Below, one piece after another: positions 9,106 through 55,974 of a stretch of 64,000 nucleotides of DNA. Under the pieces are notes generated by a model. That model saw only the letters and a list, made by a program, of their open reading frames with translations, did not search any database and was not told the DNA's origin. Positions within the stretch are counted from its first letter, which is position 1. Every line of letters starts with the position of its first letter. The position numbers and the translations under genes are program-made. Source of the stretch: Candidatus Gastranaerophilales bacterium (lineage in GTDB: Bacteria > Cyanobacteriota > Vampirovibrionia > Gastranaerophilales > Gastranaerophilaceae); assembly GCA_944325825.1 (NCBI GenBank), contig CALVBP010000003.1, forward strand, positions 16,081-80,080, written 5' to 3'.

Positions 9106-9123
9106 TTTACAAATCTTTACATT
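9106..9123 (+). promoter_or_regulatory. HLR1-like direct repeat (OmpR-family/RpaB-type site)
   Basis: TTTACAAA-TC-TTTACATT, perfect match to (G/T)TTACA(T/A)(T/A)-N2-repeat. Confidence 0.5.
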
Positions 9124-9203
9124 ATAAACTTAAAACCGTAACACAGAGCTTATTTAAAAAGCTGAAAATTGTTTTTTTATTTCATTTAGGGTATAAATAT
9201 AGT

Positions 9204-10067
9204 ATGAGGAAGAGTTTGTTGGGGAGTATAGTTTTATCACTATTATTAATGCCTATCGGCGGAGTTTTTGCTGCCTCATCCGATGTGGTAACTCTTGATA
9301 AAAAGGATCTGGAAAAACCGCAATATTTGGAATACGAAAATCCTGCCGCACTAAAAGGAACCCTTCTTATTAACGATTCAGAAACTCTTGCAAACATTAT
9401 TGAAGAACAAAAAGAGCACGATTTAAAAGACTTGGAAAAACTCTGGCAGGGAACGGTTGAGAACAACAGAGTTATAGAATTTGCATTAAAAAAACTTGCA
9501 ACCCCCGAGTCACAAAGAAGAATACATTCCTCTTTAATGGCAAAAACTCTTTCCGCTATTGTTTCCGGAGCATCGTTTGTGCCCTGCCTTATGGGTGCAG
9601 ACCCAACAATTTCCACTTCCGCATTTTCGGCAGGAAGATTAGCAATGGGACTTTTAAACAGAAAAAATATTCCGCAGGAGACTCCGCTTACAGATACCGA
9701 ATTAATAGAACTTGCAAGTATGGTTGAAGAACTGCAGGATTCTTTGGTAAGTTCTTATTATAATTACAAAAATACTTTAACTCAGCTCAAAGCTACCAGA
9801 GCAAAAATGCTGTTATACAGCAGAAACTATTCTAAAGCCGTTAACAGCTCCGAAGTATTGGAACTTGCAATATCTTCATCACTATATGATTCTATGCGGC
9901 TTCAAGAATTTAATCTGGAACAATCCGCAAAAAAATACCATATTCAGCTTCAAAGACTTGCGGGGAAAAAAGCTGTTGATTCACTTGATATGTATCAGTA
10001 CGATTTTAATTCCGTACTGTATAAAGATGATACTAAACTTCCGGACAAGAAAGGGAAAAAGAAATGA
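9204..10067 (+). CDS. Secreted helical hypothetical protein (paralog of downstream gene)
   Basis: Sec-like signal peptide; LWQGTVENNRVIEFALKKLATPE similar to the downstream LWQGAAMRSDTIKFAIYKLSNPD. Confidence 0.75.
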   Translation: MRKSLLGSIVLSLLLMPIGGVFAASSDVVTLDKKDLEKPQYLEYENPAALKGTLLINDSETLANIIEEQKEHDLKDLEKLWQGTVENNRVIEFALKKLATPESQRRIHSSLMAKTLSAIVSGASFVPCLMGADPTISTSAFSAGRLAMGLLNRKNIPQETPLTDTELIELASMVEELQDSLVSSYYNYKNTLTQLKATRAKMLLYSRNYSKAVNSSEVLELAISSSLYDSMRLQEFNLEQSAKKYHIQLQRLAGKKAVDSLDMYQYDFNSVLYKDDTKLPDKKGKKK

Positions 10068-10957
10068 AAAGATACCTTTCTTTAGCTTTAATACTTTTTA
10101 TGACTGCTCAATCTTCTTTTGCAGGTTTAGTTCTTGATGACATAAAAGCCCCAAAAGAAAATTTTTACAGAATGGGAACATCCGACACTCCGGAAACCAA
10201 ATTTGACTATAATATAGAACCGACTATAAAACCCAGCGTTCAAAAAGAAGAAAAAAAAGAAACCCAAAATCTTACATACGCAGATTTGAGTATAAAAAAA
10301 ATGTCACTTGAAATTTCAAAATCAATTGATATTGACTATAATGAAATGCAAAGTGATTTATCACTTCTCTGGCAGGGAGCTGCAATGAGAAGCGATACTA
10401 TTAAGTTTGCAATATATAAACTTTCAAATCCTGACAGAGATAAGCCGGACAGCGGCGCTGTTAAAAAAGTTTTGACAACAATTGCCGGAATGTCTACCTT
10501 TATCGGAGCAGGAATGGGGAACCCCGTACTTGCAAGCGCAGCATTAATCGGAGGAAATACTTTAGGTATAATGTCACAGGATGCTAAAGCACTTAACTAC
10601 AAGTATTCTCAAGTAACAGATGCTGACATGATTATTCTGGTAAGAAAAGTAGAGGACCTCCAGCAAAAAGTTGTAGATATGTACTATGACTATATGACAG
10701 CAAGACAGCTTTATGATATGACAACGGGAATGGTTGAAAAATGTTACAGGAATTATCAAAATTCTCAAAAACTCTCAAAAGAAGTAATTTTGATAACAGA
10801 TACTTTTTACCGTGATGCTCTGGATGAACAGCAAAAAGCAAGAGGGCAGTTTTTTGAAAAACGCTCCAGACTTGAACAATTAGTCGGCAGCGATGTATTC
10901 AGAGACTTTGAAGCCTCTGTTGATAAAAGGCTCGGAAAAAGTACTGAGAATGATTGA
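10064..10957 (+). CDS. Secreted helical hypothetical protein (paralog of upstream gene)
   Basis: Signal peptide MKRYLSLALILFMTAQSSFA; 4-nt overlap with the upstream gene; shared motifs. Confidence 0.75.
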   Translation: MKRYLSLALILFMTAQSSFAGLVLDDIKAPKENFYRMGTSDTPETKFDYNIEPTIKPSVQKEEKKETQNLTYADLSIKKMSLEISKSIDIDYNEMQSDLSLLWQGAAMRSDTIKFAIYKLSNPDRDKPDSGAVKKVLTTIAGMSTFIGAGMGNPVLASAALIGGNTLGIMSQDAKALNYKYSQVTDADMIILVRKVEDLQQKVVDMYYDYMTARQLYDMTTGMVEKCYRNYQNSQKLSKEVILITDTFYRDALDEQQKARGQFFEKRSRLEQLVGSDVFRDFEASVDKRLGKSTEND

Positions 10958-11025
10958 TTTTAATCTTTGTAACCTTTACTTTTCCGCTCAAATATGGTAC
11001 TTATAGATTATCAGAAGGAAGAGAG

Positions 11026-12696
11026 ATGTTTGAAAAAAATCTGGAGTACATAGATAATCTTGCGTTAAAACGCCGTCTTTCCCGTATCTCCATTGAGCAA
11101 TCACGGATAGGCATTTCTTATTGCATAACTCCTTCTAATGATTATATATTGCTTAAAGATGATGTTCCCTCTGATGATTTAAATAATCCGAGAGAAGCCA
11201 TTCGTGAAATGTTAAAAAAGAATATCAAGAATGAAATGCATTCTAATGATATTATTATCACGTTTGGAATAGGACTTGGATATTTGCTGGATGAGGTTTA
11301 CAACACATATCCTTCAAGAATTTATATTTATGAACCTGATGTGAATTTTCTGCACTTTGTTCTGAATAATATTGATATTTCCCAGCATCTTGCAAGCGGA
11401 AGGGTATATATTACAAACGATTTAGATGAACTGCTCGCAAAACTAAATTCATCTTTTATTACAAAAGACCGGGTTGAAATTGTATATTTGCAAAACTACG
11501 CAGTATCACATAACAGAGACCTGCTCCTGCTTACTCAAAAGGTTTATGATACATGTAAAAGCAAAATGGTCGATATAAATACAATTAAAAAGTTTTCAAA
11601 AAAATGGCTTACCAACACAATCGAAAATATTGCAGCTGTTAATGAAACTGCCATGTATAAGTTGTCAGACCTTACGGGCAAGTTTTCCGGGCAGACGGCT
11701 TTAATAGCCGGGGCCGGACCTTCTTTAAACGATAACATTGCTCATATTCAAGCAAATAGAAACAATTTTATTATTTTCTGTGTAAATAAAGCTTTAAAAT
11801 ATTTAATACAAAATGGGATTACTCCTGATTTTGTAGTTTGCCTTGATGCTTCAAATATGAACAAAACCGTCAGGGAAATGGAATCACACATTGAGCGAAC
11901 AAACTGCATTATGGATATTAGGACCGATTCCGCATTAACCAAAATGAAATTTAACAAGATTTTTGTTAATTTTTCTAATACAGACTTCTTAATGAATAAA
12001 TTGGCTAAATTTAATAATAATCTGCAATTCTTTGAATCAGGCGGTTCTGCAACAATTTTGGCTTTAATCTCAGCAATAAAACTCGGCTTTTCAAGGATAG
12101 TACTTGCCGGATTGGATTTAGCATTTAAAGAGAATGTTATTTATGCTGACGGCGAAGCTATGAACAGAATTTCTCCGGAACAAATTATGGTTGATTCCGT
12201 TAAAAAGAATCTGGTTAGAATTAAATCTGTTAATGGTGAAATGGTCTACACAAGAGAAGATTATGAAGTCTACATTCACCACATTGAAAGTATTATAAGA
12301 GAATTAAAATACAGTGAAATATACAATCTTTCATCTTTTGGCGCATATATTGACGGGGTAAAAGCTGTAAAATTTGAAGACTTAAATTTGTGGGGAAATT
12401 CTTCCGCCTCTCCTATCGCAGATGCCGAACCTTTTAAGTTTGAACTGCAAGATTTTATGAAAGATGAGTTCTATAATATTAACAGTATAATCTCTCTTCT
12501 TTCTAAGGGAGTATTCTCTCCTGCTCTGGTCTCGTCAATCGTCAGATCTGTTTTCATTTATCAATATATGCAAGCTGATATTTTAAATGTACTTCAGCGT
12601 AATTTTGATTCAACACTTGCCGAAGACTTTGTAGAGAAAACAAAGCTAGCAATTAAAACAGTTGTTGAACTTTTGCAAAAACACAAATTAATTTAG
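11026..12696 (+). CDS. Motility-associated factor (Maf/DUF115, MptE-like) glycosyltransferase family protein
   Basis: ALIAGAGPSL, GITPDFVVCLD, GGSATILALISAIKLGFSRIVLAGLDLAF; likely start MFEKN at 11026 (ORF from 10954). Confidence 0.8.
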   Translation: MFEKNLEYIDNLALKRRLSRISIEQSRIGISYCITPSNDYILLKDDVPSDDLNNPREAIREMLKKNIKNEMHSNDIIITFGIGLGYLLDEVYNTYPSRIYIYEPDVNFLHFVLNNIDISQHLASGRVYITNDLDELLAKLNSSFITKDRVEIVYLQNYAVSHNRDLLLLTQKVYDTCKSKMVDINTIKKFSKKWLTNTIENIAAVNETAMYKLSDLTGKFSGQTALIAGAGPSLNDNIAHIQANRNNFIIFCVNKALKYLIQNGITPDFVVCLDASNMNKTVREMESHIERTNCIMDIRTDSALTKMKFNKIFVNFSNTDFLMNKLAKFNNNLQFFESGGSATILALISAIKLGFSRIVLAGLDLAFKENVIYADGEAMNRISPEQIMVDSVKKNLVRIKSVNGEMVYTREDYEVYIHHIESIIRELKYSEIYNLSSFGAYIDGVKAVKFEDLNLWGNSSASPIADAEPFKFELQDFMKDEFYNINSIISLLSKGVFSPALVSSIVRSVFIYQYMQADILNVLQRNFDSTLAEDFVEKTKLAIKTVVELLQKHKLI

Positions 12697-13517
12697 TGAA
12701 TCATATAAAGAGAATTTGCACCCAACACTTTATCTTTAAGGCGTTTAAAACCTTTTCCGTATATATATTTCATCTGCTCTACGAGGTTTTCTTCAACATC
12801 AATAAGATACATATCGTGGACAATAAATTCTTTTATAATAAACACAATACTTTTATTTTGGGTCCAAATAATATTTGTATTAAATAATTCATTTTTGTAA
12901 GATGAAATTTGTCCGACAACACCTTCGGAGTCATCAGCAGCAATAACAACCATCCTCCCGCCAAGTGACATTTCAATATCTCTTGCAAAAGCGTGTTCAA
13001 AAACAAGTCCGAATTTCGATGAAAAATTATCATATCCAACAATTCTTATTTCAACATTTCTGTTATATGCATTCAAGAGCTCTTGTTCAAAGATTTTGAA
13101 GTCTTGTGACCAGACCTCCATATAAATCTCTCGTTTGGCATTCTGAATAACTTCAAGAATTTTATTCTGAATATTTTGTTTTCCCGAAATTGTTATAATC
13201 GGTTCATTATAATCATCTTTAACCTCCGGAAGGTGCTTTTCCAAATAGTTAATAGCGGAAGTCATTTTTCTCTGATAGCTTGAAATGAGTTGCTTAGGTC
13301 TTATCGGTGTATAGGAAACCGGTTTAGTATTGGTTGCTGCCACAATATTTTTATCTTCAAGTGCTTTTAAGGTATCATACGTCCTTGATTGCGGAATATT
13401 AGCAATCTTTGATACTTCATATCCGGTTGCCGGATACTTTTTTAAAAGCGCAATATAAACTTTTGCCTCATATGTGTTAAAACCAATTTCTTTAAGCTTT
13501 TCAACTAAATCTGCCAT
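12693..13517 (-). CDS. TrmB family transcriptional regulator
   Basis: LKEIGFNTYEAKVYIALL...ATGYEVSKIANIPQSRTYDTLKAL wHTH plus C-terminal effector domain. Confidence 0.9.
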   Translation of the reverse strand: MADLVEKLKEIGFNTYEAKVYIALLKKYPATGYEVSKIANIPQSRTYDTLKALEDKNIVAATNTKPVSYTPIRPKQLISSYQRKMTSAINYLEKHLPEVKDDYNEPIITISGKQNIQNKILEVIQNAKREIYMEVWSQDFKIFEQELLNAYNRNVEIRIVGYDNFSSKFGLVFEHAFARDIEMSLGGRMVVIAADDSEGVVGQISSYKNELFNTNIIWTQNKSIVFIIKEFIVHDMYLIDVEENLVEQMKYIYGKGFKRLKDKVLGANSLYMIH

Positions 13518-13534
13518 AGATAGATTTTAACAAA

Positions 13535-19306: not shown

Positions 19307-19451
19307 TTATTACCTCATATCCTATATTTTTAATTAAAAAAGGTAAAAATTTATTTTGACAAATTGTTAAAATATCGTTACAAAAAAGTCAATTTTTAAT
19401 AATAAAAATACTTAATATATATAAGGTTAGATTATATAGGGTTAATTAGGT

Positions 19452-28905: not shown

Positions 28906-29718
28906 CTATGCAAGAGTATCCAAACTTTTAAAAGCACTTTCTGCAATCTGAACATCAAGATGAGCCGTGCTGCCGTCCGATTCAACCTCTACCAATGCAA
29001 ACATTCCGGTTTTATCCAGTTTTGTCTTTAATTCCTGAGCTTGTGCAAGAGTTAACCCGCCGCCCAAATCAAGTTTTGGATTTTCTCTATTATAATGACT
29101 TGCCGAGCTTTCACTTTTAACATGCGGAGATGTTTTTGTCCCCAGGGCTGAAGTTACGACAATATCTTCACCTATCATGTCCGAAACTTTTTCAAGTATA
29201 GCACCCGTGCCTTTTCTGGCATACGGAATGTCATTTATAAATGATGCATCACTTATAGACCAACCCTTTCCGCCGGACAATCTTTCAAGAGCGGAATCTG
29301 CTGCCGCCGCCTTGAGGGCAGCATCTCTGCTCATCGTTGAATAAGATATTCCGGTTGAAGGAGATGAACTTTGTAAATCCCATTGAAACTTCGTTTTCTC
29401 AGGAACTTTATAATCAGACCAAGAAAATCTGAACATATCATTATTCTTAAAGTTTACTGAATTATTACCGGTTGCTTTAAAAGATTTCCAAAAATCAGAA
29501 TAAAAATCTTTATTAGCTGTTTCATTTTCTGAAAAACCGTTATTCCAAATCCCTAAAGTATTAAAATTCCCTAATAAAGAAAAATTATTCCAATTATTCC
29601 ATAAGTTTAATCCGCCAAATGCAGCAGGCATGTTCCAAAAATTCCCGCTAAACGACGGAAGCTGAAGTTGATAACCCGCAAAGTTTATATTTTTGAATAT
29701 TGTAGATTCTATGGACAT
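28906..29718 (-). CDS. Hypothetical protein: low-complexity W/N/F N-terminus plus possible M15 (Hedgehog/DD-peptidase-like) C-domain
   Basis: IVVTSALG...SHYNRENPKLD...AHLDVQI. Confidence 0.55.
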   Translation of the reverse strand: MSIESTIFKNINFAGYQLQLPSFSGNFWNMPAAFGGLNLWNNWNNFSLLGNFNTLGIWNNGFSENETANKDFYSDFWKSFKATGNNSVNFKNNDMFRFSWSDYKVPEKTKFQWDLQSSSPSTGISYSTMSRDAALKAAAADSALERLSGGKGWSISDASFINDIPYARKGTGAILEKVSDMIGEDIVVTSALGTKTSPHVKSESSASHYNRENPKLDLGGGLTLAQAQELKTKLDKTGMFALVEVESDGSTAHLDVQIAESAFKSLDTLA

Positions 29719-29877: not shown

Positions 29878-30264
29878 ATGAAAAGAATAATTTTAGCTTT
29901 AGGATTTTTGCTTGTTTTAAACAGCGCTGCATACGCCGACGGTAATGCATTTACACCGTTAAACTTTAATGATACCAGCTACGGAACCACATCAAATGCA
30001 GTTTATAATAAATCTATAGATGCGACGGCAAGCGAAGCTGTAGGCAACGGTAATATTCAAAATGCTTTAACTCAGCTTGAAAATGCCCAGGTTGATATTC
30101 GCAATGACCTTTTAAACTGCAAAACAAAATATGCTGATGTAGACGCACAGTATAAACTTATTAAAAACGAAAGATCCGCTTTGAAAAAACAAGTAAAAGC
30201 TATCGAAAAAAGAATTAAAGAAATAGATAATGCAAAAGAAAAAATCAGAAAAAATATGCTTTAA
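29878..30264 (+). CDS. Secreted coiled-coil hypothetical protein
   Basis: AAGGAG RBS, signal peptide, C-terminal heptads. Confidence 0.75.
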   Translation: MKRIILALGFLLVLNSAAYADGNAFTPLNFNDTSYGTTSNAVYNKSIDATASEAVGNGNIQNALTQLENAQVDIRNDLLNCKTKYADVDAQYKLIKNERSALKKQVKAIEKRIKEIDNAKEKIRKNML

Positions 30265-30639: not shown

Positions 30640-30807
30640 AAGTTACTCCTTATTCACACTCTTTAGTGTACTTTAGTTTTTATAATTAACATTAGCTGTT
30701 CGGGCTACTCTAAAATATTGTTTTATATGTATTCTTATTTGAAAGTTTCCACTATTTGAAGGATTTTACAAAACTTAATATAATGTTAGCATACTAAAAG
30801 AAGGGGA

Positions 30808-32019
30808 TTGGAGGGCTGTTTTTTGTACGCATATAATCAGCAGAGAGAAGTCCGAACCTTACATGTAGTCCCGCAAAGACATGTTGTAAGAAGAAGGATT
30901 CAGCCAAAAAAAATCAGGGTTAAAAAAGTTAATCCTATTGTTGCTCTGTTTAGATTTGTTGTTGTAATGTCTTTTTTAGCAGCCTTCGCAGTATTTGTTT
31001 TGCCTGTAAGTTTTCACAGACTGGTAAAGCAGGTGTTTTTCTATTCCGGGATTCCTGTCAAAATATCTTACGAAAACAATATGAAAATACAAAACCCCGT
31101 TACGGATACATCAGTTAATCTATACAGCATTGCAAATCCTATTACAAACTATATAAGTAACGATTTATACAAAAACTACCTTCTTTTAACCCCTACTATT
31201 CAAAAAATGCATAGTGAAGTTACCACTATGTACCACACATCCGAAATGAGCGGATTAAAGAAACAGCTGCAAAATCTTATGGCTCAATACCCAGCTATCA
31301 AGCCTGCTATCTATGTTTGGGAATATGACAGAGGACAATATCTTGATATTAACGCAGAAAAAATTTATCCTGCTGCAAGTATAATCAAACTGCCCGTACT
31401 GGTCAGAATGTTTAAAGCAATTGAAGCAAATCAATTCACTATTTATGATGAGATGAAAATGCATGAACAATACCGTTCCTCCGGTTCAGGGAATCTACAG
31501 TACGCAAGAGCCGGCAATTCATATACAATAGATCATCTTGCCAAAATTATGATACAGGATTCCGATAATACTTCAACTAATATGATTATGGCAAAACTTG
31601 GCGGAATGGATGACATAAATATCGGACTGAGAGACTGGGGGATTTCAACCACTTATGTAAGAACCTGGCTTCCTGACTTAGGCGGAACAAATAAGACTAC
31701 TGCGGCAGACATTGCAAAAATTTTATACAACCTTGATAATCCCGGGTTTTTAAATATCAACTCCAGAGAAAGTATAATTGACTATATGAGTCATGTAAAA
31801 AATGACCGGCTTATACAGGCAGGGCTGGGCGACGGTGCATTATTTATACACAAAACCGGTGATATCGGCACCATGCTCGGAGATGCAGGAATTGTTTATG
31901 CACCAAACGGTAAAAAATATATAATTGTTATACTGGCAAACCGTCCTTACAATTCTCCACAGGGTAAAGACTTTATAGTTAAAGCTTCTGAGCTTATTTA
32001 CAAGACTATCGCAGGTTAA
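30808..32019 (+). CDS. Class A beta-lactamase-family serine hydrolase (cyanobacterial PBP-A-like)
   Basis: ASIIK (SxxK), SDN, HKTG; WLPD in place of the Glu166 loop; N-terminal TM; start may be TTG at 30823. Confidence 0.85.
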   Translation: MEGCFLYAYNQQREVRTLHVVPQRHVVRRRIQPKKIRVKKVNPIVALFRFVVVMSFLAAFAVFVLPVSFHRLVKQVFFYSGIPVKISYENNMKIQNPVTDTSVNLYSIANPITNYISNDLYKNYLLLTPTIQKMHSEVTTMYHTSEMSGLKKQLQNLMAQYPAIKPAIYVWEYDRGQYLDINAEKIYPAASIIKLPVLVRMFKAIEANQFTIYDEMKMHEQYRSSGSGNLQYARAGNSYTIDHLAKIMIQDSDNTSTNMIMAKLGGMDDINIGLRDWGISTTYVRTWLPDLGGTNKTTAADIAKILYNLDNPGFLNINSRESIIDYMSHVKNDRLIQAGLGDGALFIHKTGDIGTMLGDAGIVYAPNGKKYIIVILANRPYNSPQGKDFIVKASELIYKTIAG

Positions 32020-32036
32020 TTGTAAATTTTTGTTAA
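32019..32036 (-). promoter_or_regulatory. HLR1-like direct repeat
   Basis: Minus strand TTAACAAA-AA-TTTACAAT. Confidence 0.35.
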
Positions 32037-32139: not shown

Positions 32140-32157
32140 TTTACAAATTTTAACAAA
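32140..32157 (+). promoter_or_regulatory. HLR1-like direct repeat upstream of the haemagglutinin-like gene
   Basis: TTTACAAA-TT-TTAACAAA. Confidence 0.4.
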
Positions 32158-32212
32158 AAAGCAATTTTTAAAAGTATAGATTTTTTATATAAGTACATAG
32201 GTAATTAGAGGA

Positions 32213-34249
32213 TTGAAAATTATGAGAAATTTTGCAAAAAAACTATCAGCCATCGCTTTATGTACAGTATTTGCATCCATGCAAATAGCTTTTGCTGCCC
32301 CGATTGATACCGGTTTGGGCGGCGGTATCGGAGGTGCCGTAATAGATTCTACTCAAGGCGGGTTTGCAGGAGCTGACCTCTCAAAACCGGGTAATGCCGA
32401 CCTTAACTTTAACGGCAACGCTCATGTTAACTGGGGTTCTTTGAATATTAACAAAGGTGAAAGCCTTAATTTCAACGCTGTTGACGGTGCAAACGGACTT
32501 ACCATTGTTAACACTGTTAACGGAGGTATGTCTAAAATTTACGGCTCAATCAATGCGAATGACGGTATTGCAAAATTAATTATATCCAACCCGAACGGTA
32601 TGTTATTTGACGGGGCAAAATTTACTACAGCGGGAGATTTGATGTTAACAACTCAAGCTCTCGGTGTAAATTATGTTAACGGACAACTTGATATTTCAAA
32701 ATTAAATCAGGCTGCCATTAACGGTATTACAATTCAGAACACAGACTTCACTGTAGGCGGAGAATTTAACATCACAGCACCTTCAATTGAGATTATTAAA
32801 GGGGCTATTAACGCAGCTAACGGTTTAAAACTTGTTACCAGAAACGGTCAAGATTATTTAGTTGCTCCGGCTGAAGGTCAAAAAATCACTAATCCGGGAG
32901 TTAGATTAGAAACAGTAAGTGTTGACGGAAATGTTTATATTTTATCGGGAGAAGATATTGTTAAAGTTGTTAACGGCGGAACTATTAACGGCGATTTAAC
33001 AATTGATTCACAAGGTGTTGTGGCATTAAATTTTTCAAATGCTGATAAAAATCTTTTGCACATCACCGGAAATCTTGATGCAAAATCAACAGGCAGCGCT
33101 TCCACAAATATTATTGATGCTGCAACCGGCAACAATCTCGGCAGCATGATGTACGTCGCAAATACTAAAGTTGACGGTGATGTCTCATTAACTAATGCCG
33201 GCGGTATTATGGAAGTCGGAAACTTAACAACCGGCGGGGATGTTTCATTAACAACGACAACCGGTGTTAATGACCACATTAAACACTATGTTCACTTAAT
33301 CGGCAACAACTCTATCGGCGGAGACTTAAGTATAGATTCAATTCACAATATCCACATCGGCGGTTACAATTTTGAAGAAGGCCAAATTGCTGCAGGCAGC
33401 TTGAATGTAGCCGGGGCAATTGATGCATTGGCAAGAGAAGGCAGCATCGGGATTTCTGTTGATACCACAGCTGCAACAATAGCTCTTGAATCAGGGACAT
33501 TAAACATTATCACTGATGGTAAAGCTACTTTAACAGCTGATGAATACAGCTTAATTGCTAACGGTTATATCGGCGGCTTAGATTCAACCGAAAAATTTAT
33601 CGGCTCAATGGAAGGATACAAATTGCTTCCACCTGAAACATTATCACTCCTTAACGTTAACGGAGGAAAGATTACAGCTCTCGATGCCCCTTATGCAGCG
33701 GTTGGCTCTAAAACAAACCTCGATGTAACAGGTGTTAACGGTAATAAAGTTTATCTTGAAGCTGAAAACGACTTAAAGATTTCAGGCAACAATCACGCAG
33801 AACAAATCACTGTCGGCAACAAAACGGATAACTTAACAGTTGATACAGCAAGCAGAGATTATAATTTAAAATATACAAATATTCGAGATGCCCAAGAAAT
33901 CGTAATCAATGGTGATACTGAAATCACATACGAAATGGCAAACGGCGAAAACGGGTTAAACATTAACAGCAACGGAAGACCTGCTAACACTACTTACCTC
34001 GTAGTTGACGGCGGTGACCAACCGGGACCCGGCCCAGACCCGGAACCGCTTCCAAATCCGGAAGATAACGACAACGTTAAAATCTTGAACAACTTACAAA
34101 GAGATCAAATAAATGCAGCAATCGATGCAAACGCAGTATACACTCCGGTAGCATTCGCAGCTGACCTGGATGAAGAAATCGATAAAGGTGTTCGCAAGAA
34201 CGTTGACGGATCAGTAACAGTTGTTAAAACCTACGCTATGGGTAAGTAG
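32213..34249 (+). CDS. Filamentous haemagglutinin N-terminal (TPS) domain beta-helix protein
   Basis: Signal peptide, VNWGSLNINKGESLNF, SKIYGSINA, ISNPNGMLF (NPNG motif); Gly/Asn/Thr-rich beta-helix; start may be 32222. Confidence 0.8.
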   Translation: MKIMRNFAKKLSAIALCTVFASMQIAFAAPIDTGLGGGIGGAVIDSTQGGFAGADLSKPGNADLNFNGNAHVNWGSLNINKGESLNFNAVDGANGLTIVNTVNGGMSKIYGSINANDGIAKLIISNPNGMLFDGAKFTTAGDLMLTTQALGVNYVNGQLDISKLNQAAINGITIQNTDFTVGGEFNITAPSIEIIKGAINAANGLKLVTRNGQDYLVAPAEGQKITNPGVRLETVSVDGNVYILSGEDIVKVVNGGTINGDLTIDSQGVVALNFSNADKNLLHITGNLDAKSTGSASTNIIDAATGNNLGSMMYVANTKVDGDVSLTNAGGIMEVGNLTTGGDVSLTTTTGVNDHIKHYVHLIGNNSIGGDLSIDSIHNIHIGGYNFEEGQIAAGSLNVAGAIDALAREGSIGISVDTTAATIALESGTLNIITDGKATLTADEYSLIANGYIGGLDSTEKFIGSMEGYKLLPPETLSLLNVNGGKITALDAPYAAVGSKTNLDVTGVNGNKVYLEAENDLKISGNNHAEQITVGNKTDNLTVDTASRDYNLKYTNIRDAQEIVINGDTEITYEMANGENGLNINSNGRPANTTYLVVDGGDQPGPGPDPEPLPNPEDNDNVKILNNLQRDQINAAIDANAVYTPVAFAADLDEEIDKGVRKNVDGSVTVVKTYAMGK

Positions 34250-44338: not shown

Positions 44339-44513
44339 AAATTCCTTTCTCTTCTTATATTATTATGATTAGTTCCTTAATACCACATTCTCATTTTAAC
44401 AAACTATCAACACTGTGTCAACAGAGTAATTTAAACAATTAAGAGAATATGATGAACACTATAATGTTAGGCGGTTAAAACCCTTCTATATCGTTAATAT
44501 TACTTAATATTAA

Positions 44514-45023
44514 TTATGCCAGAGCTTCAAAAGACTGGCCGTTCTTTTTGATAAGAGCTACCGTCGCCTGTGCATTCAAAAAATTCAAAGCGCCCATAAA
44601 ACTTTGTTTTTTACTTAAAGCACTTCTTGCTTCATTCATATTTGATTCAATTGTACTCTTTATTATCTCTTCACCGGAATTTTTTATTTTATATTCTTGC
44701 CGCTTAACAACAGCATCAGCTTTTCGTGGCGGAAACCCTACCTCCTCCGCTTTTGAATCATTCTCGGAAACAGAATCCGGCGGCAATGAGTTTGTTTTAT
44801 TTTCCGGTGTTTTTACTTCGGCAGTTAAAGAAAACGGATTTTTTGAAGCGACAAAGGAATTTCTTGCAATTTCCATGACATCGTTCTGAGCCGAAGAAGT
44901 GTATTCTTCCTGAACATCTTTAGCTAAAGCTTCCGCACGCTCTCTCGCACGTTTAAAAATCATCTCTTTTAAAGCTTCTGCTTCATGCCTGCTGACTATG
45001 GAATTGTAATTATATCCTGTCAT
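44514..45023 (-). CDS. Hypothetical protein
   Basis: AGAGG RBS before MTGYNY at 45023; helical termini and low-complexity middle. Confidence 0.7.
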   Translation of the reverse strand: MTGYNYNSIVSRHEAEALKEMIFKRARERAEALAKDVQEEYTSSAQNDVMEIARNSFVASKNPFSLTAEVKTPENKTNSLPPDSVSENDSKAEEVGFPPRKADAVVKRQEYKIKNSGEEIIKSTIESNMNEARSALSKKQSFMGALNFLNAQATVALIKKNGQSFEALA

Positions 45024-45099
45024 AATTTGTCCTCTTATATATATTAAAACCATAAATGTAAAGAAAATTGACAAATTAGTATATATTATTTATATAATT

Positions 45100-45117
45100 G
45101 TTACACAATTTAACATT
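45100..45117 (+). promoter_or_regulatory. HLR1-like direct repeat
   Basis: GTTACACA-AT-TTAACATT. Confidence 0.35.
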
Positions 45118-46326: not shown

Positions 46327-46408
46327 AGAAAAAACCTTAAATATTATACCTAATAGATTATATAACAAAGGGGATACCTTTTTACAATGGCAGATTACAA
46401 AATAAATT

Positions 46409-46978
46409 ATGTCTAAAGCCATGTATAGAAAAGAAGAGTTTCAAGAACTTATTCACCTTGCGCAAAAGGGGGATGCAAAAGCGCTTGAAGAACTTGTAAG
46501 AAGAGTACAAAAAAATATTTACACAATGTTTTCGCACCTGACAGTTTCAAAATCAGATATATCAGATTTAACTCAGGAAACTCTTTTAAAAATGGCACGA
46601 GCTCTTCCAAAATTAAAAGAGCCAAAAAATTTTAAACCCTGGCTTAACCAGATAGTAACTAATACCTTTTACGATTATGCAAAAAGAACGTCCAAAAATA
46701 ATCTTCTTGAATTCGACGATAAAAAGCTTAATGAAATAAAAGACAAGCTTGGATGCGAACCCGGTCAGAAATGTTTGTTTTCAGAAATTGAAAAACTTAT
46801 AAAAGCAGCATTAATGACCCTTCCTCAAAACTTAAGAATTACATTACTGTTAAGAGAATATGAGGGTTTAAGTTATGAAGACATATCTAAAATAACAAAT
46901 ACAACGCTCGGGACTGTTAAATCAAGGATTTCCAGAGCCCGACTGAAATTACAGGAAGAACTTAAAGAATTTATCTAA
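46409..46978 (+). CDS. ECF-type RNA polymerase sigma factor
   Basis: DLTQETLLKM, FKPWLNQIVTN (region 2); LLREYEGLSYEDIS...GTVKSRISRAR (region 4). Confidence 0.92.
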   Translation: MSKAMYRKEEFQELIHLAQKGDAKALEELVRRVQKNIYTMFSHLTVSKSDISDLTQETLLKMARALPKLKEPKNFKPWLNQIVTNTFYDYAKRTSKNNLLEFDDKKLNEIKDKLGCEPGQKCLFSEIEKLIKAALMTLPQNLRITLLLREYEGLSYEDISKITNTTLGTVKSRISRARLKLQEELKEFI

Positions 46979-46990
46979 AGGAGTAAAAAA

Positions 46991-47554
46991 ATGAAATTAA
47001 CCTGCGCCCAAATGGATGTACTTATCTCTTTTTATATAGATAACGACCTCAGCAAAACACTTAAAAGCAAGGTTGAAGAACACCTTGAAAACTGTCCGGC
47101 ATGCAAAGCAAAATACGAAATAATAAAATCTATGCTGACGGATTTAAAAACCGCTTTTGGGAAAGAAGAGTCCATTCCGGAAGAAATACTGTATTCGTCA
47201 GTTTCAAACGCACCTCTTTCAACTCAATACAGGGTTTTTAAAAACAATCTCTCCGCTTATGTTGATAATGAGCTATCAAATGAAGAAAATGTAAAAATAA
47301 AAAAATTTACTATTAATAACAAGAAAGCAAGAAAAGACCTTGAAGACACCTATAACATAAGAAAGCTAATGAATGACTCGTTCAGAAAAACTAAAGCAGA
47401 TGCACGGCATGACTTTTCCAAAAATGTTCTTAAACAGCTTGAACTTGAAGATGAAGCTTTTTTAGGAATTCATCCGGTTATAAAAATAATTATTGGATTT
47501 ACGATAAGTGTACTCGTTTTTACAAGTATTGTGCTTTTTTCGATTAGTGCTTGA
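46991..47554 (+). CDS. Anti-sigma factor with zf-HC2 (ZAS) domain and C-terminal TM
   Basis: HLENCPACK (HxxxCxxC); follows ECF sigma; C-terminal TM helix. Confidence 0.85.
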   Translation: MKLTCAQMDVLISFYIDNDLSKTLKSKVEEHLENCPACKAKYEIIKSMLTDLKTAFGKEESIPEEILYSSVSNAPLSTQYRVFKNNLSAYVDNELSNEENVKIKKFTINNKKARKDLEDTYNIRKLMNDSFRKTKADARHDFSKNVLKQLELEDEAFLGIHPVIKIIIGFTISVLVFTSIVLFSISA

Positions 47555-47557
47555 AAT

Positions 47558-47596
47558 AAACAGGGGGCGGAGCCTTTCAGGCTCCGCCCCCTGTTT
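47558..47596. terminator. Bidirectional intrinsic terminator
   Basis: AAACAGGGGGCGGAGCCT-ttc-AGGCTCCGCCCCCTGTTT. Confidence 0.9.
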
Positions 47597-47601
47597 TTAT
47601 A

Positions 47602-50202: not shown

Positions 50203-50295
50203 AGTTTAAACTCCGGAGGGAAAAATCTTCTTTTGTTTTTACCCTTACAATTATATTTTAATGATATTTTTGAAAAATCAACTTATTTTTAATGA

Positions 50296-50712
50296 TTAAT
50301 TAATATTTTTCTTATTCTTAACCTTTTCAAAAACTTCATCAAAACTTACTATAGGCTCAAATCTGTAACCACAGTGTTCCGCCAGAGTTCCTCCCATCAT
50401 AAATAGTTCTTCCTGAGGATACCGTCTGCAAATTCCGGGGCGCTTTTTATGGATTTTACACTTATTAGTTTCTTTATCAAGATTCATGCATTCAAAAACA
50501 AGCCCTGTTTCATCTTTATCTATTACTTTTAAGTACGTATAAAACGGATGCAGATATTGCAATTTTTTAAACTCTTCTTCTGTTTGAATAACATTTTTAT
50601 GTTTTACGTAAATCTTCTGGCAGCATCTTCCGCAAGCATTACAACTCCCAACCCTGTAGTACTTGCGTCTTAAAATATACAAATAAAAAAATTTTTTTAC
50701 TCTTTTAAACAT
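50296..50712 (-). CDS. YkgJ family cysteine cluster protein
   Basis: CNACGRCC...C...CKIHKKRPGICRRYP. Confidence 0.85.
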   Translation of the reverse strand: MFKRVKKFFYLYILRRKYYRVGSCNACGRCCQKIYVKHKNVIQTEEEFKKLQYLHPFYTYLKVIDKDETGLVFECMNLDKETNKCKIHKKRPGICRRYPQEELFMMGGTLAEHCGYRFEPIVSFDEVFEKVKNKKNIN

Positions 50713-51889
50713 TTACCAACCGTGATTTTGCAAATCTATATTCGGAAGAATCTTCATTTGATAAAACCATAATCTTGGAAAAATACTTATTTGCCTGTTT
50801 ATAATCTTTAATTGAATAAAGAGTTGAGCCTTTTTCCAAACAGATTTTTATAATGCGCTCCTCCGGATTTATAAAAGATTTTAAATCCTGAATAATTCCG
50901 CTAAAATCAGCTGCCATTTCGGGATTTAGTATAATACAATTTTCATATTCATATAATGAAAAATGATAGTTATTTTCCTTATAATAATTTTCCGCCCATG
51001 TCTTATGACCTATATAACTGGACCTATTAAATCCTCGCTCAAGTTCATTAACAGCTTTTATTATTTTCAAATATTCATTTTGATTATTTAATACAAGAGG
51101 CAGAAGTCTTTTCATACAGCAATATGCACCGGTATAATCTCCCAGTTCCAGCATAACAAACGGAAGCCTTTCAAGAACATCAAAGGATTTAGAATCAAGA
51201 CAATATGCTTGTTTTAAATAAGCCAGAGCTTGCATATATTCTTTTCTTTCATAATAAAGTTTTCCCAGTAAGAAATTTATATTAAAACTCGTAGGATAAA
51301 TATTTGCAGCCTGCGAAAGAGCTTGTATAGCAGTTTTATAGTCTTTTGCCGCAACAGCTCTCATTGCTTTCTGATACAAATCCTCACCCATATTAATAAA
51401 TTCACTTATACTTTTTTTTATTTCCAGATAATGCGCAGAATTCTTATCTTTAGCGTATTTCAAATATTTCTGATAATAAAATACCGATTGAAATCTCATT
51501 CCTCTGGTAAAATAAGATGTCGCCAGATTTAAACATACCGACTCATCATCCGGTTTGACAGCATGTGCTTTTACCCAGTACCCAATCGCTTTAGATGAAT
51601 CTTGTACTTTGTATGCAATGTTTCCTAAATATAAATAAGAGGGATTTTTAAAAGCTTCAAGCTCAACAGACCTGATAAAAGCATCCTCAGCCTTTTGCAT
51701 ATTGTTCAGTTTATAATAGCAGCGTCCTATCTCGTAATACAATTTGTAAGAAAAGCTTGTATTAACCATATCCAGATAGAGATTAAGCGCATTAGAATAC
51801 TTCCCTTCCCTGTAAAGATTCTTAGCGGCTTCAATCTTCTTATCTTCTATATCGGAGTTATCTTCTATATAATAATCAGAGCCAGCCAT
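50705..51889 (-). CDS. Tetratricopeptide repeat protein
   Basis: Repeated TPR helices (YYEIGRCYY, YLYLGNIAY, NFLLGKLYY). Confidence 0.88.
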   Translation of the reverse strand: MAGSDYYIEDNSDIEDKKIEAAKNLYREGKYSNALNLYLDMVNTSFSYKLYYEIGRCYYKLNNMQKAEDAFIRSVELEAFKNPSYLYLGNIAYKVQDSSKAIGYWVKAHAVKPDDESVCLNLATSYFTRGMRFQSVFYYQKYLKYAKDKNSAHYLEIKKSISEFINMGEDLYQKAMRAVAAKDYKTAIQALSQAANIYPTSFNINFLLGKLYYERKEYMQALAYLKQAYCLDSKSFDVLERLPFVMLELGDYTGAYCCMKRLLPLVLNNQNEYLKIIKAVNELERGFNRSSYIGHKTWAENYYKENNYHFSLYEYENCIILNPEMAADFSGIIQDLKSFINPEERIIKICLEKGSTLYSIKDYKQANKYFSKIMVLSNEDSSEYRFAKSRLVNV

Positions 51890-51907
51890 AGCTGTATTCT
51901 AGCACAT

Positions 51908-52264
51908 TTACAAGCCTAAATCATCACGTAATTTAGAATTTGTTACAAGGTTTGTTAAGACATCATCTTCAAAAACGTCTACAACACCCTCTGCGAAAAG
52001 CTCTCGCATTCGCTGTAAATGGGATAAATCTTCTTCATCACTCATTGCGATTTTATTAAATTTTTTAATATCGCAATCTTTTTGGAAAAGTTCAATTGCA
52101 CTTGATGAAATCTCTGTTCTGTCAACATACGGATTTAAAGAAGCTGTTTGTGCATACTTCTGTGCATTTGCCCTGATTGCGGCAAGATTAATGACATTAT
52201 TCTCTCTTGTTAATTGAGAATTATACAATAAATCTTGATTATTATCGTTAATGTTGTTGAACAT
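51908..52264 (-). CDS. Hypothetical protein, weak FlgM-like pattern
   Basis: DRTEISSSAIELF...QRMRELFAEGVVDV. Confidence 0.6.
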   Translation of the reverse strand: MFNNINDNNQDLLYNSQLTRENNVINLAAIRANAQKYAQTASLNPYVDRTEISSSAIELFQKDCDIKKFNKIAMSDEEDLSHLQRMRELFAEGVVDVFEDDVLTNLVTNSKLRDDLGL

Positions 52265-52344
52265 GAGACCCTAATCTCCCCGATTATCCGATAATATTAT
52301 CGTATATTTTTCCGCTCTTGTTATCAACTATTTGGAGGAATTAT

Positions 52345-53238
52345 TTACTGATGACCTTTCTTTTTAAAACGGACACCTTCAACCTCGTGAACATCTTCTG
52401 TAACAATAAATGCTTTCGGGTCAATAGTATGAACCAACTCTTTTAATTTAGGCATATCAAACTTATTTACAACGCAGTATGTAAGAATTTTTTCCTGCCT
52501 TGAATAACCGCCTAAAGTTTTCATATATGTAACGCTTATATCAAGCTCCTGTATAATGGAATCACCAATTTCACGTGATTTATCCGATACAATTCTAACA
52601 GACTTAGCTTTATCAAGGCCTTCAAGAACCGTATCAATAACTTTTGACGCAACATAGTACGTAAGAACCGAATACAACGCTCTGTCCCAGCCAAGTAAAA
52701 AGCCTGCACCCATATATATAAAGAAATTTATCCCCATTAACAACTCGCCGACAGAAATAATTTTCAGCTTTTTGGAAAGTTCTATGGAAATCATCTCTGT
52801 ACCGTCAAGAGATGCATTATTTTTTAATATTAAACCTACGCCGAGACCTAATAATATTCCGCCGAACACTGTCGAAAGCAGTAAATCCTGTGTAACTATC
52901 CGCCAGTGAATCATATTTGTTGCTATTGACAGCATTAAAATTGCAAAAAAGGTCTGAATAACAAAAACCTTGCCTAAAGTCCTTAAAGCAATCAAAACAA
53001 ACGGCAGGTTAATCAACATAATGAAAATACCAAGATTACCATTAGTAATATATGTTGCCATCATTGAAATACCTATAACACCGCCGTCAATAATTTTATT
53101 CGGCAGTAAAAACATCTCAAGCGCAACAGCGACTATAAAAGCACCCAGCATTAAAAATATTGCTTTTATTATATAACTTATAATAATCTGTCCTCGGGTT
53201 TTTACTACTTTTACAGGCTTTTTTCTTTGTGAAAACAC
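52345..53238 (-). CDS. YitT family membrane protein (DUF161/DUF2179)
   Basis: IIDGGVIG, NLPF, SLDGTE, IDPKAFIVTEDVHEV. Confidence 0.92.
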   Translation of the reverse strand: MFSQRKKPVKVVKTRGQIIISYIIKAIFLMLGAFIVAVALEMFLLPNKIIDGGVIGISMMATYITNGNLGIFIMLINLPFVLIALRTLGKVFVIQTFFAILMLSIATNMIHWRIVTQDLLLSTVFGGILLGLGVGLILKNNASLDGTEMISIELSKKLKIISVGELLMGINFFIYMGAGFLLGWDRALYSVLTYYVASKVIDTVLEGLDKAKSVRIVSDKSREIGDSIIQELDISVTYMKTLGGYSRQEKILTYCVVNKFDMPKLKELVHTIDPKAFIVTEDVHEVEGVRFKKKGHQ

Positions 53239-53255
53239 AAATATCCTCTCCGTTA

Positions 53256-54146
53256 TTAGTCTTTTTTCCTAAGCATTTCAAAAATATTTTTATGTTTAAC
53301 TGCTGTTTTATCAATTGGTTTTATCCCTAAAATAGATTCCAAATCCGTTTTTAGAGTTGTTAAATCATCATATTTCTTCAATAAACCATCCATACAGACA
53401 GAAACATCCCCTGTTTCTTCAGAAACAACAAGACATGCGGCATCAGAAACTTCTGACATGCCGATTGCGGCTCTGTGACGGGTACCATATTTCCAGCTGA
53501 GCTTCGGATCTTCCGTAAGCGGGAGCAAGACCCCTGCTGAATGTATTTTATTTCCGTCAATAATCATTGCTCCGTCGTGTAATGGAGTGTTCGGGTGAAA
53601 GATTGTAAGAATCAATTCTGTTGAAATTCTTGCATCTAAAACAGTTCCCACTTCCGAGTAAACATTTGTACTCAACGCTTTTTTAAATACTATCAAAGCT
53701 CCTGTTTTAGTTTTTGTAAGATATTTAACTGCTTCTATAATTTCTTTTAATATATCAACTTCACTTTCCGCTGCTTCTTTATATGTACCGGAAGAGAAAA
53801 ATGTTCTTTTAATAAACCCCGGCTGTCCCAAATACCCTAAAAAGCGCCTTAATTCCGGCTGAAATATAACAATGAGACTCAGCGCAATAAGTGTTACAAG
53901 AGATTTTAAAAATACACCGACAATTTTTAAATCAATTAAGATTAAAATTTCACTTAAAATCCAGGCAAAAACCAGAATAAACAAGCCTTTTACAAGGTTT
54001 TCCGACTGTGTATTTTTAATAAACTTTTGATAAAATATAAATAGAACTGCAGCAATAAAAAGTATTTCAAGTATATTAATCCAGTTTAAAGTCCACTGGA
54101 GCGGGCTAAAGAAACTGTGAATTAATGAAATCAGTCCGTCTATCAT
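53256..54146 (-). CDS. cdaA: Diadenylate cyclase CdaA
   Basis: Three TMs, FQPELRRFL, PLHDGA (DGA), GTRHRAAIG (RHR). Confidence 0.95.
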   Translation of the reverse strand: MIDGLISLIHSFFSPLQWTLNWINILEILFIAAVLFIFYQKFIKNTQSENLVKGLFILVFAWILSEILILIDLKIVGVFLKSLVTLIALSLIVIFQPELRRFLGYLGQPGFIKRTFFSSGTYKEAAESEVDILKEIIEAVKYLTKTKTGALIVFKKALSTNVYSEVGTVLDARISTELILTIFHPNTPLHDGAMIIDGNKIHSAGVLLPLTEDPKLSWKYGTRHRAAIGMSEVSDAACLVVSEETGDVSVCMDGLLKKYDDLTTLKTDLESILGIKPIDKTAVKHKNIFEMLRKKD

Positions 54147-55465
54147 TGCTGCCTCAATCTATCGGGAATATTTTCTCTCGCTATCAAATCCTCTAAAGAT
54201 TCTCTACTTACTATCATATCAGATTGTGAATTATTTACAAGTACCATTCCAGGTTTTGGAACTCTGTTGTAGTTTGAAGCCATCGAATAATTATAAGCTC
54301 CTGTGTTGTATACGCAAATAATATCACCTGTTTCAAGATAAGGAAGCTCAATATTTTCAATTAAAATATCTCCGCTTTCACAATATCTTCCTGCAAGTGT
54401 AACGAGTTCCGTTTCACAATTGTTCACTTTATTTGCAACTTCAGCAGTATATTTTGCCTGATACGTACTCGGGCGGGGATTATCAGCCATTCCGCCGTCA
54501 AGCGCAACATACTTACGAACATTCGGAATATTTTTTACGGAACCTACAGTATACAATGTTACTCCCGCTGTTGAAATTATACTTCTCCCGGGTTCTATAT
54601 AAATAACGGGTTCAGAAATATTATATTTTTCAAGAGCAGCTTGCATCGCTTCAGTCACAGCAGCTGCAAGTTCTTCGACAGAGGGAGGGCAGTCGTTTTC
54701 CGTATATTTCACCCCAAGGCCTCCCCCTATATTTACCTCTTCCAATTCTATCGAATGAACTTCTTTTATTCTCGCCGCTTCTTTTATAAGGATTTCTACT
54801 TCATCATAATAACTTCTTGCCTCAAAAATCTGAGACCCGATATGCGCATGAATTCCTTTCAAATTGAGATTATTATACTTGTTTTTAATCAGGTTAATAA
54901 TTTCATCAACCTGAGACAAATCAAATCCGAATTTAGAATCAATTTGTCCTGTTTGAATATAGTCGTGAGTATGACATTCAATACCCGGAGTTATTCTTAA
55001 AAGAATATTGGCTGTTTTTCCTTTTGACTCAGAAATTCTGTTAAGAAGTTCCGCTTCATAAAAATTATCGACTGAAAACCTGCCAACACCTAATTCCAAG
55101 GCAAGTTCAATCTCTTCAAGCGACTTATTATTACCATTGAAGAGAACTTTAGACATTTTTACCCCTGCTTTGCTGGCAGTAAAAATTTCTCCTGAAGAAA
55201 CCGTATCAAACCCAAACCCTTCTTCATCAAGAATCTTCAATACGGCAAGATTGCAAAGAGACTTGCAGGCATACATCATTCTTATATTTTTATAATTTCT
55301 GAACGCCTCCTTGTATTCTCTGCAAATTTGTCTTATAGTCGCTTCATCCAACACATAAAGAGGTGTTCCGTATTTTTTTGCCAAATCAATCGTATCACAT
55401 CCGCCAATGTAAATATGCTCTCTTTTTTCCGTAGTAACCGGTCTTAAATACTGATTTGTACTCAT
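54143..55465 (-). CDS. lysA: Diaminopimelate decarboxylase
   Basis: YGTPLYV, YACK (PLP Lys), HAHIGSQI, GGGLG, EPGRS, GRYCESGD, GAYNYSMASNYN. Confidence 0.97.
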   Translation of the reverse strand: MSTNQYLRPVTTEKREHIYIGGCDTIDLAKKYGTPLYVLDEATIRQICREYKEAFRNYKNIRMMYACKSLCNLAVLKILDEEGFGFDTVSSGEIFTASKAGVKMSKVLFNGNNKSLEEIELALELGVGRFSVDNFYEAELLNRISESKGKTANILLRITPGIECHTHDYIQTGQIDSKFGFDLSQVDEIINLIKNKYNNLNLKGIHAHIGSQIFEARSYYDEVEILIKEAARIKEVHSIELEEVNIGGGLGVKYTENDCPPSVEELAAAVTEAMQAALEKYNISEPVIYIEPGRSIISTAGVTLYTVGSVKNIPNVRKYVALDGGMADNPRPSTYQAKYTAEVANKVNNCETELVTLAGRYCESGDILIENIELPYLETGDIICVYNTGAYNYSMASNYNRVPKPGMVLVNNSQSDMIVSRESLEDLIARENIPDRLRQQ

Positions 55466-55468
55466 ACA

Positions 55469-55521
55469 AAAAACCCTCTTATGCTCTAATATCTTTATAC
55501 TAGCAAAATAAGAGGGTTTTT
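55469..55521 (-). terminator. Stem-loop between the 80-aa gene and lysA
   Basis: AAAAACCCTCTTAT...ATAAGAGGGTTTTT 14-bp stem. Confidence 0.7.
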
Positions 55522-55543
55522 ACAATATGAAGTAAGACTATAT

Positions 55544-55786
55544 CTAAACAGCTTCCGTCACTACATACTTGGCAGACTTTGATACAACTCCGTAACATAC
55601 CATTGTTAATCGATTATTCAGAGCAAGCATTGTTCTGTAATTATTTGCATAATTGTTCATTGCCCCTAACATATCATCTGCGGAAACTTTTGACACCAAA
55701 GAATCTGCTTCATGGTTATCTACTTTTTCCTGTGCATATTTTTCAACTAGTAATTTGTCAATAAAATCTCTTGCTCCGATTGCCAT
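55544..55786 (-). CDS. 80-aa protein, possible FliE/SctI-like axial component
   Basis: AAGGAG RBS; DDMLGAMNNYANNYRTMLALNNRL matches the FliE pattern. Confidence 0.65.
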   Translation of the reverse strand: MAIGARDFIDKLLVEKYAQEKVDNHEADSLVSKVSADDMLGAMNNYANNYRTMLALNNRLTMVCYGVVSKSAKYVVTEAV

Positions 55787-55956
55787 AATAAACTCTCCTT
55801 ATTTACATTAATACTCTATTCAATTTTTAAGAGATGATAAAACTAAACCTTAATAAAAGTCTCATTGTTATGGACTTTATTTGGTTTTTGTCTTATTTTA
55901 TATCTCTTGTATATATAAAGTATTTAACTTTTAAAAAATTGCCTTTTTAGATGGCA

Positions 55957-55974
55957 ATTGTAAAGTTATGTAAA
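55957..55974 (-). promoter_or_regulatory. HLR1-like direct repeat
   Basis: Minus strand TTTACATA-AC-TTTACAAT, perfect match. Confidence 0.5.

Follow-up and report, generated by a model that had tools for sequence, protein, structure and literature searches.

The window analysed here is a stretch of 64,000 nucleotides (nt) from the genome of a Candidatus Gastranaerophilales bacterium (contig C3, positions 16081-80080), in which a short direct repeat resembling the cyanobacterial element HLR1 recurs between genes. The assembly, a metagenome-assembled genome (MAG) from chicken gut, comprises 1.85 Mb in 57 contigs with 35% GC; the DNA runs that contain sequence of the window are chicken gut and manure metagenomes. 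HLR1 is recognized by RpaB, which is essential and is among the most important regulators of photosynthetic genes in cyanobacteria and red-lineage plastids. A first-pass annotation of the window had proposed that the repeats mark an ancestral RpaB-like regulon in a lineage that does not photosynthesize, and the source is indeed a member of the non-photosynthetic Gastranaerophilales (Vampirovibrionia/Melainabacteria).

Boxes were scored with a 25-nt position weight matrix (PWM) trained on genome-wide intergenic seeds, and genes were taken from a crude open reading frame (ORF) model of the whole genome (1688 ORFs, 90% coding). The seven main sites named in the annotation are all present, with PWM scores of 15.9-27.7 bits, and every site in the window is intergenic or lies at a gene end. 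Two further copies, described as weaker, do not stand up: those at 30765 and 42713 score 8.9 bits and 7.9 bits (minus strand), a level at which real matches are about as frequent as control matches. Two sites were added, one of them the third unit of a tandem array. The boxes and the promoter elements next to them, named by the promoter types defined below, are as follows:

9096..9123, plus strand: triple tandem HLR1-type unit, TTTGCAAAAT TTTACAAATC TTTACATT; 27.7 bits (9106) and 15.6 bits (9096, the added third unit)
9064..9089, minus strand: promoter-like element of type C, GTTATTAAAC-N8-TGTGGAAT; toward the flagellin gene, it follows the box after 14 nt
24899..24916, plus strand: HLR1-type box, 17.6 bits
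24998..25023, minus strand: sigma-28 (FliA)-type promoter, TAAAGTTTTT-N10-GCCGTTA, pointing to the gene cluster 24196-24815
25052..25069, plus strand: weaker HLR1-type box, newly added, 13.1 bits
29771..29788, plus strand: HLR1-type box, 22.3 bits, flanked by the orphan gene 28906-29718(-) and by 29878-30264(+)
32019..32036, minus strand: HLR1-type box, 15.9 bits, located where the beta-lactamase-family gene 30808-32019 ends and reading toward the gene for a TPS-domain exoprotein
32140..32157, plus strand: HLR1-type box in the opposite ("co") orientation, 16.0 bits, 3 nt upstream of AGCAAT
45100..45117, plus strand: HLR1-type box, 16.7 bits, upstream of 44514-45074(-) in its minus-strand reading
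55957..55974, minus strand: perfect HLR1-type box, 19.6 bits

The triple box occupies the divergent region between a giant flagellin gene, 5209-8730(-), and an operon, 9204-12696(+), whose last gene encodes a Maf-like flagellin glycosyltransferase according to Pfam. On the minus strand, box 24899 is followed by a type-B-like promoter (24852-24881) and by a small ORF, 24546-24815(-); box 25052 lies 28 nt (17 + 11) upstream of the minus-strand sigma-28-type promoter. The type-B promoter of box 32140 (32160-32193) stands ahead of the TPS-domain exoprotein gene, 32213-34249(+), and box 55957 is upstream of a type-B promoter, 55915-55943(-), and an 80-amino-acid ORF, 55544-55786(-). No box is found at the flhA/fliH export cluster of the window. 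At the triple box, the match between the window and contigs of related strains from two other runs stops at 9121, where the HLR1 box ends; beyond this position, the contigs share a sequence unrelated to the window. This pattern points to a junction at the box, created by recombination or rearrangement.

Published HLR1 sites consist of two (G/T)TTACA(T/A)(T/A) units separated by 2 nt (PMC6525291), and the consensus of the box, TT-GTTACAAATCTTTACAWT, agrees with this pattern. As a direct repeat of octamers (consensus TTGTTACAAATCTTTACAWT) it gives a sharp peak at a 10-bp period and at no other; in the sense of the gene it reads TGTAAA-N4-TGTAAC. The most informative position is an invariant C, worth 2.45 bits per hexamer, with fixed T/A positions on either side, and the flanks of the box are A/T-rich with 10-bp phasing. 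Direct pairs of KTTACA in the whole genome number 47 at the 10-bp period and about 3-5 at every other spacing; inverted pairs show no peak.

The enrichment was measured in 178.6 kb of intergenic DNA (32% GC) against AT-matched Markov-1 and Markov-3 backgrounds. Exact KTTACA-N4-KTTACA is found 37 times, compared with 0.22 (Markov-1) or 0.58 (Markov-3) expected, and PWM matches of at least 14 bits are found 86 times, compared with 1.8-2.8 expected. The intergenic excess on which the first-pass annotation had made its proposal depend is therefore present. Spacers of 2, 3, 5, 6, and 7 nt yield only 0-2 intergenic matches each (one for 5 nt), compared with the 37 for 4 nt. Across the genome, of which 90% is coding, 111 sites reach 14 bits, and 96 of them (86%) fall between genes; reversed sequences, used as a control, yield 31. 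The total is thus on the order of 85-110 sites per 1.85 Mb. Within the window, the strict pattern of the annotation has 4 matches (0.06 expected) and a looser version 18 (8 expected).

Only three OmpR-family genes are present in the genome, and one of them, outside the window at C13:33253-34038(-), encodes the RpaB-like regulator that the proposal requires. Its product scores 353.1 bits with the NCBIfam RpaB equivalog model NF045944 (cut-off 330), whereas the other two OmpR-family proteins (C2:40536-41243 and C1:7657-8379) score 209 and 202. The protein has 82-95% identity with proteins from Gastranaerophilales MAGs and 57-70% with the RpaB proteins of two Synechococcus MAGs (L033 and L030). 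The recognition helix, DTRVVDVHISRLRSKLE, is identical in this protein and in the Synechococcus RpaB, whereas both paralogs differ there. The wing is nearly identical as well (LILTARGIGYMFQ versus LILTARGTGYLFQ, with the Synechococcus MAG sequences, rather than model-strain proteins, as the reference).

One column of the receiver domain holds Thr in this protein (YGVT) and Cys in the RpaB of Synechococcus and Obscuribacterales (YGVC). By alignment, this column would correspond to C59 of Synechocystis RpaB, a redox-sensitive target of thioredoxin (PMC4361706). Because Thr replaces the Cys, redox input may be absent in this bacterium, and phosphorylation by a Hik33/NblS-like kinase would then be the likely means of control; Hik33/NblS has been reported for Melainabacteria (PMC3787301; bioRxiv 10.1101/2025.01.21.633742). 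The linker between the two domains also carries approximately 12 residues more than in cyanobacterial RpaB (...IIPTSSSNGAPAAGG...). During these comparisons, a contig labelled Planktothrix sp. (L023, DATNPN010000022.1) was seen to encode an RpaB that is almost the same as in an Obscuribacterales MAG (L025) and does not resemble that of Synechococcus; the contig or bin is probably mislabelled.

Three recognizable promoter types lie downstream of the boxes when each box is oriented toward the nearest gene start. In the dominant orientation, the sense strand reads AATTGTAAAnnTTTGTAACAATTT, and the edge of the box is 57-83 nt from the start codon. The first type resembles sigma-28/FliA promoters and in this genome takes the form cTAAAGtttt-N11-GCCGATAt. 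Strict matches to it, TAAA(G)-N15-GCCGATAA, number 33, and 31 of these are intergenic. A box accompanies 23 of the 33, always in a single orientation, and 20 of the 23 share one offset, with 17 nt between the proximal hexamer and TAAAG (16 nt in two); two others are 10 nt closer and one is 11 nt further away. Type B consists of tGCAAT or TGAAAT, N16, and ACTTTATATAtatGTAAG, and was recognized by its -10-like core, ACTTTATATA. Here the box lies 15 nt upstream of TGCAAT/TGAAAT, or a box of the opposite orientation ends 3-5 nt before nGCAAT. Type C consists of GTGTTAT, approximately 12 nt, and AATGTGGAATTA, with the box 14 nt upstream of GTGTTAT. Boxes of the opposite orientation are a minority and sit one helical turn closer to the promoter. 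If textbook sigma-28 geometry is applied to the promoter consensus, transcription would start such that the box is centred at approximately -60, and at approximately -51 in the closer variants.

The repeats are therefore found in promoter regions, as had been claimed, but they are not generic promoter boxes; they are upstream elements held at rigid distances from promoters of at least three sigma classes. Three such classes are plausible because the genome encodes eight proteins of the sigma-70 family, including a bona fide FliA/WhiG sigma factor (C9:59908-60750; TIGR02479, 225.8 bits, cut-off 189.6) and a SigB/F/G-like member. The latter, C9:19360-20262, is a candidate for the recognition of type C promoters.

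The distribution of the box was followed in a sample of 61 genomes across the class, whose families are labelled f1-f10, with f1 the family of the present genome. Exact matches exceed those of the reversed control in f1 (13-47 versus 2-14), f2 (28 and 35 versus 4), and f5 (17-30 versus 0-5), and weakly so in f9. All of these motif-rich families have RpaB orthologs, with 61-89% identity. Families f4, f6, and f10 lack both an RpaB ortholog and any enrichment of the motif. Photosynthetic cyanobacteria, whose genomes measure 5-8 Mb, have 10-32 exact sites compared with 2-9 in the control; because they share the excess, the signature is phylum-wide, although the density of sites per Mb is approximately 5-8 times higher in the present genome. 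The arrangement of box and promoter is shared as well. A composite of box-N16-18-TAAAG-N14-16-GCCG is present in 9 of the 11 family genomes sampled (6 genera) and never in the reversed control. In five other genera, the ORFs that follow these composites fall into families also seen behind them here, chiefly one with the N-terminal signature MGxAASQAR, described below, and others resembling targets T41 and T26. The layouts seen here recur in one genome of family f5 (G004), where sigma-28 lies at 7 nt and a "co" box abuts GGCAAT.

These observations make it probable that the repeat serves the RpaB ortholog of this bacterium as its HLR1-type operator and acts as an upstream activator site of class I type. 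The proposal of an RpaB-like regulon thus gains support from both the enrichment and the ortholog, with binding as a prediction. In this model, RpaB would bind head to tail, as a dimer on two 8-bp units with a 10-bp period and as a trimer on the three units of triple sites. Most boxes would place it at a fixed distance upstream of the promoter (17 nt from the sigma-28 TAAAG, 15 nt from type B, and 14 nt from type C). From approximately -60 (or -51), it would most likely recruit RNA polymerase in the manner of a class I activator, whichever sigma factor is bound. The regulon predicted in this way is non-photosynthetic and would comprise late flagellar genes, genes for surface and secreted proteins, small RNAs, and fast-evolving lineage-specific genes.

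Several observations count against this model. Families f3, f7, and f8 retain RpaB and yet show no enrichment of the motif; thus, the link between regulator and site abundance is not one to one. The region upstream of rpaB itself has no strong box, the best match there being a single good half-site of 10.8 bits. Approximately half of the PWM matches of at least 13 bits have no classifiable promoter. A search of public runs for data with which to map transcription starts returned only low-coverage contigs of related chicken-gut strains, none of them clearly RNA; no RNA sequencing run with the organism was found, so the -60 and -51 positions are those of the promoter consensus. The fliA gene has an 18.5-bit box upstream in this genome, but a box of at least 12 bits occurs there in only 3 of 30 genera, at different positions. 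Because this box is not conserved, we do not claim fliA as a core target. Finally, by sequence alone a paralog could be the binder, because WalR and PhoP bind similar TGTWAH/TTAACA repeats.

The last point deserves closer attention. Direct repeats with a period of 10-11 bp are the usual binding sites of OmpR-family proteins. WalR/YycF (TGTWAH-N5-TGTWAH) and PhoP of Bacillus subtilis (TTAACA repeats), as essential regulators of this family, bind head to tail to direct hexamer repeats, often upstream of genes related to the envelope. The protein encoded at C2:40536-41243 or that at C1:7657-8379 might therefore occupy the box, and the distribution of the C2 type (f1, f2, f9, and most of f5) resembles that of motif-rich genomes. 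However, the C2 type is missing from the motif-rich genomes G035 and G053, and the C1 type is found in nearly all genomes, including those of the motif-poor families f4, f6, and f10. The paralogs also have different recognition helices and fall far below the cut-off of the RpaB model, whereas the motif matches HLR1 both in sequence and in its 4-nt hexamer spacer. We therefore regard a paralog as an unlikely binder. The operators of WalR and PhoP have an 11-bp period (N5), whereas the box has N4 only (37 matches versus 1). On this ground, and because the RpaB ortholog fails the YycF equivalog model (218 bits, cut-off 340), identification of the box as a WalR operator was rejected.

A different possibility is that RpaB binds the box but mainly represses or anti-activates late flagellar and surface genes until it is dephosphorylated. 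Cyanobacterial RpaB represses many promoters (PMC6525291), a few co-oriented sites lie 0-35 nt from the ATG, near or over start codons or likely promoters, and a weak half-site overlaps the rpaB leader. However, most sites are well upstream of -35 and clear of the -35, -10, and start positions, and in Synechocystis such an upstream position correlates with activation. Activators, moreover, are typically phased rigidly with the promoter along the helix. Repression as the main effect is thus quite improbable. Slightly more improbable still is an UP-like element contacted by the alpha C-terminal domains of RNA polymerase, with no dedicated transcription factor. The predicted location of the box at approximately -45 to -70, its rigid distance to the -35 element across sigma classes, and its A/T-rich, 10-bp-phased flanks would all suit such an element. 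In contrast to the A/T tracts of UP elements, however, the box is a strict direct repeat with an invariant C of 2.45 bits per hexamer, and it occurs in both orientations with a shift of one turn; the box was not accepted as an UP element for these reasons. Moreover, it is absent from members of the class that lack RpaB, although all have RNA polymerase, and in the sister class the identical site has a protein partner that is known. Chance matches were a concern raised by the first-pass annotation itself, given a genome of 35% GC with intergenic DNA of 32% GC. The excess over Markov-1 and Markov-3 backgrounds is approximately 60-170-fold for exact matches and 30-50-fold for PWM matches of at least 14 bits, and it is confined to a single spacer length, so the caveat about AT-richness can be dismissed. 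The DNA between box and promoter, and that outside both, is not conserved among sites, so an element of the miniature inverted-repeat transposable or repetitive extragenic palindromic type was also rejected. The chance that either coincidence or mobile repeats account for the boxes is negligible.

If RpaB is the activator acting at these boxes, the system has clear counterparts. Cyanobacterial RpaB (Ycf27, Rre26) and HLR1, studied in Synechocystis 6803 and Synechococcus elongatus 7942 (Riediger et al. 2019, PMC6525291), provide the same motif and an orthologous regulator. In Synechocystis, HLR1 centred between -66 and -45 is associated with activation and HLR1 between -38 and +23 with repression (PMC6525291). 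The upstream position predicted here falls inside the activation window, and the regulon is similarly large, with approximately 100 sites. In contrast to the cyanobacterial regulon, the one predicted here has among its targets no photosynthesis, high-light, or redox genes, which the organism itself lacks, and few sites at repressor positions, the Cys that thioredoxin targets in Synechocystis aligns with Thr, and the boxes are coupled rigidly and in specific orientations to promoters of several alternative sigma factors, including sigma-28. Class I sites and UP elements at sigma-28 (FliA/SigD) promoters likewise place an upstream element near -60 that boosts late flagellar promoters; here, however, the element is a sequence-specific direct repeat that flagellar promoters share with non-flagellar promoter classes and is tied to a two-component regulator.

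Homologs of rpaA, rpaB, and nblS were noted in Melainabacteria previously, with the remark that they "may have another function" (Di Rienzi et al. 2013, PMC3787301; Soo et al. 2014, PMC4040986). These studies concern the same lineage and the same regulator gene, but they report the presence of genes only and describe no binding site, regulon, or promoter architecture. Our literature search found no paper that combines HLR1 with Melainabacteria or Vampirovibrionia. Thus, the pairing of regulator and site is already known, and the design of box and promoter in this lineage is one for which no published report was found. We know of no function proposed for Melainabacteria RpaB since 2013. The present analysis supplies a concrete regulon of approximately 100 sites, a defined promoter architecture, and candidate targets (late flagellar genes, a coiled-coil family, and small RNAs), and it makes the role of RpaB before or without photosynthesis testable even though these organisms are uncultured. 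For the annotation of such genomes, a box with sigma-28, type-B, or type-C elements marks transcription units.

We tentatively raise a broader possibility, in which RpaB would be an old global class I activator. Control of motility, surface, and small-RNA genes would be its original task, still visible in Gastranaerophilaceae, and control of photosynthesis would have been co-opted later in cyanobacteria and plastids. A modular cassette of box and promoter, used with several sigma factors, would then have been placed repeatedly ahead of fast-evolving orphan genes. The same signature in photosynthetic cyanobacteria makes the word "ancestral" in the first-pass annotation plausible, but the families that keep RpaB without enrichment speak against it.

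Among the box-associated genes of the genome, Pfam identifies three flagellins (one of 1173 amino acids in the window and another of 1374 amino acids elsewhere), FlgK, a sigma factor, and SurE, together with an EF-hand protein, a LysM protein, an RHS-repeat protein, and a metallophosphatase. Within the window, Pfam-annotated targets are the operon that ends in the flagellin glycosyltransferase gene and the TPS-domain exoprotein. The majority of targets have no Pfam domain, and many are specific to the lineage. No photosystem, hli, or light-acclimation genes were seen among the targets examined, in a lineage without photosynthesis (PMC3787301). The expectation that the regulon covers secreted, envelope, and export genes holds only in rough terms: targets that can be identified are late flagellar genes, the TPS-domain exoprotein, and the LysM, EF-hand, and RHS proteins, many others are Pfam-less, and the export cluster lacks a box.

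One Pfam-less family of targets begins with MG(M/L)(A/S)ASQAR(L/Y)L and is coiled-coil at both termini with a variable middle. Its members here are:

26042-27628, minus strand: window member
24196-24525, minus strand: window member
T02, T08, and T19: members among the genome targets

Promoters composed of a box and a sigma-28 element drive members of this family here and in five other genera, whereas the 528-amino-acid window member has an ordinary TTGACT...TAAAAT promoter instead. A sequence search of PDB with T19 and Pfam searches with T02, T08, T19, and the two window members gave no informative match.

The gene 28906-29718(-) encodes 270 amino acids and has a 22-bit box. In 30 further family genomes, one of them from its own genus, no homolog was found at E<=1e-15; the control element is conserved, but the gene is an orphan at the level of the strain. 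Its product, like many other box-controlled proteins, carries an N-terminal ...N-x-PSF(K/R)(G/S)... motif within the first 20-40 residues and no Sec signal. The PSF(K/R)(G/S) motif may be an export or sorting tag.

Two identical small-RNA candidates of approximately 110 nt were found on the minus strand at C16:16800-17330 (L134) and C19:30300-30810 (L135), both downstream of an HLR1 box and a type-B promoter. Rfam searches of the window and of these candidates returned no match. The 5' part of each is CA-rich and unstructured and contains three AACCU(U/A) repeats; a strong intrinsic terminator follows, and the fold z-score of -3.6 derives largely from the terminator.

Flagellin genes and flgK have the type C element (GTGTTAT) upstream, whereas the classical sigma-28 consensus is found ahead of other genes. 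Outside the window, type C elements are located at C1:28040, C9:15375, and C25:3583, ahead of targets T17, T25, and T51 (two flagellins and flgK). The window itself contains one of the eight sigma-70-family genes, at 46409-46978(+), which encodes a sigma factor of the extracytoplasmic function (ECF) type (Sigma70_r2).

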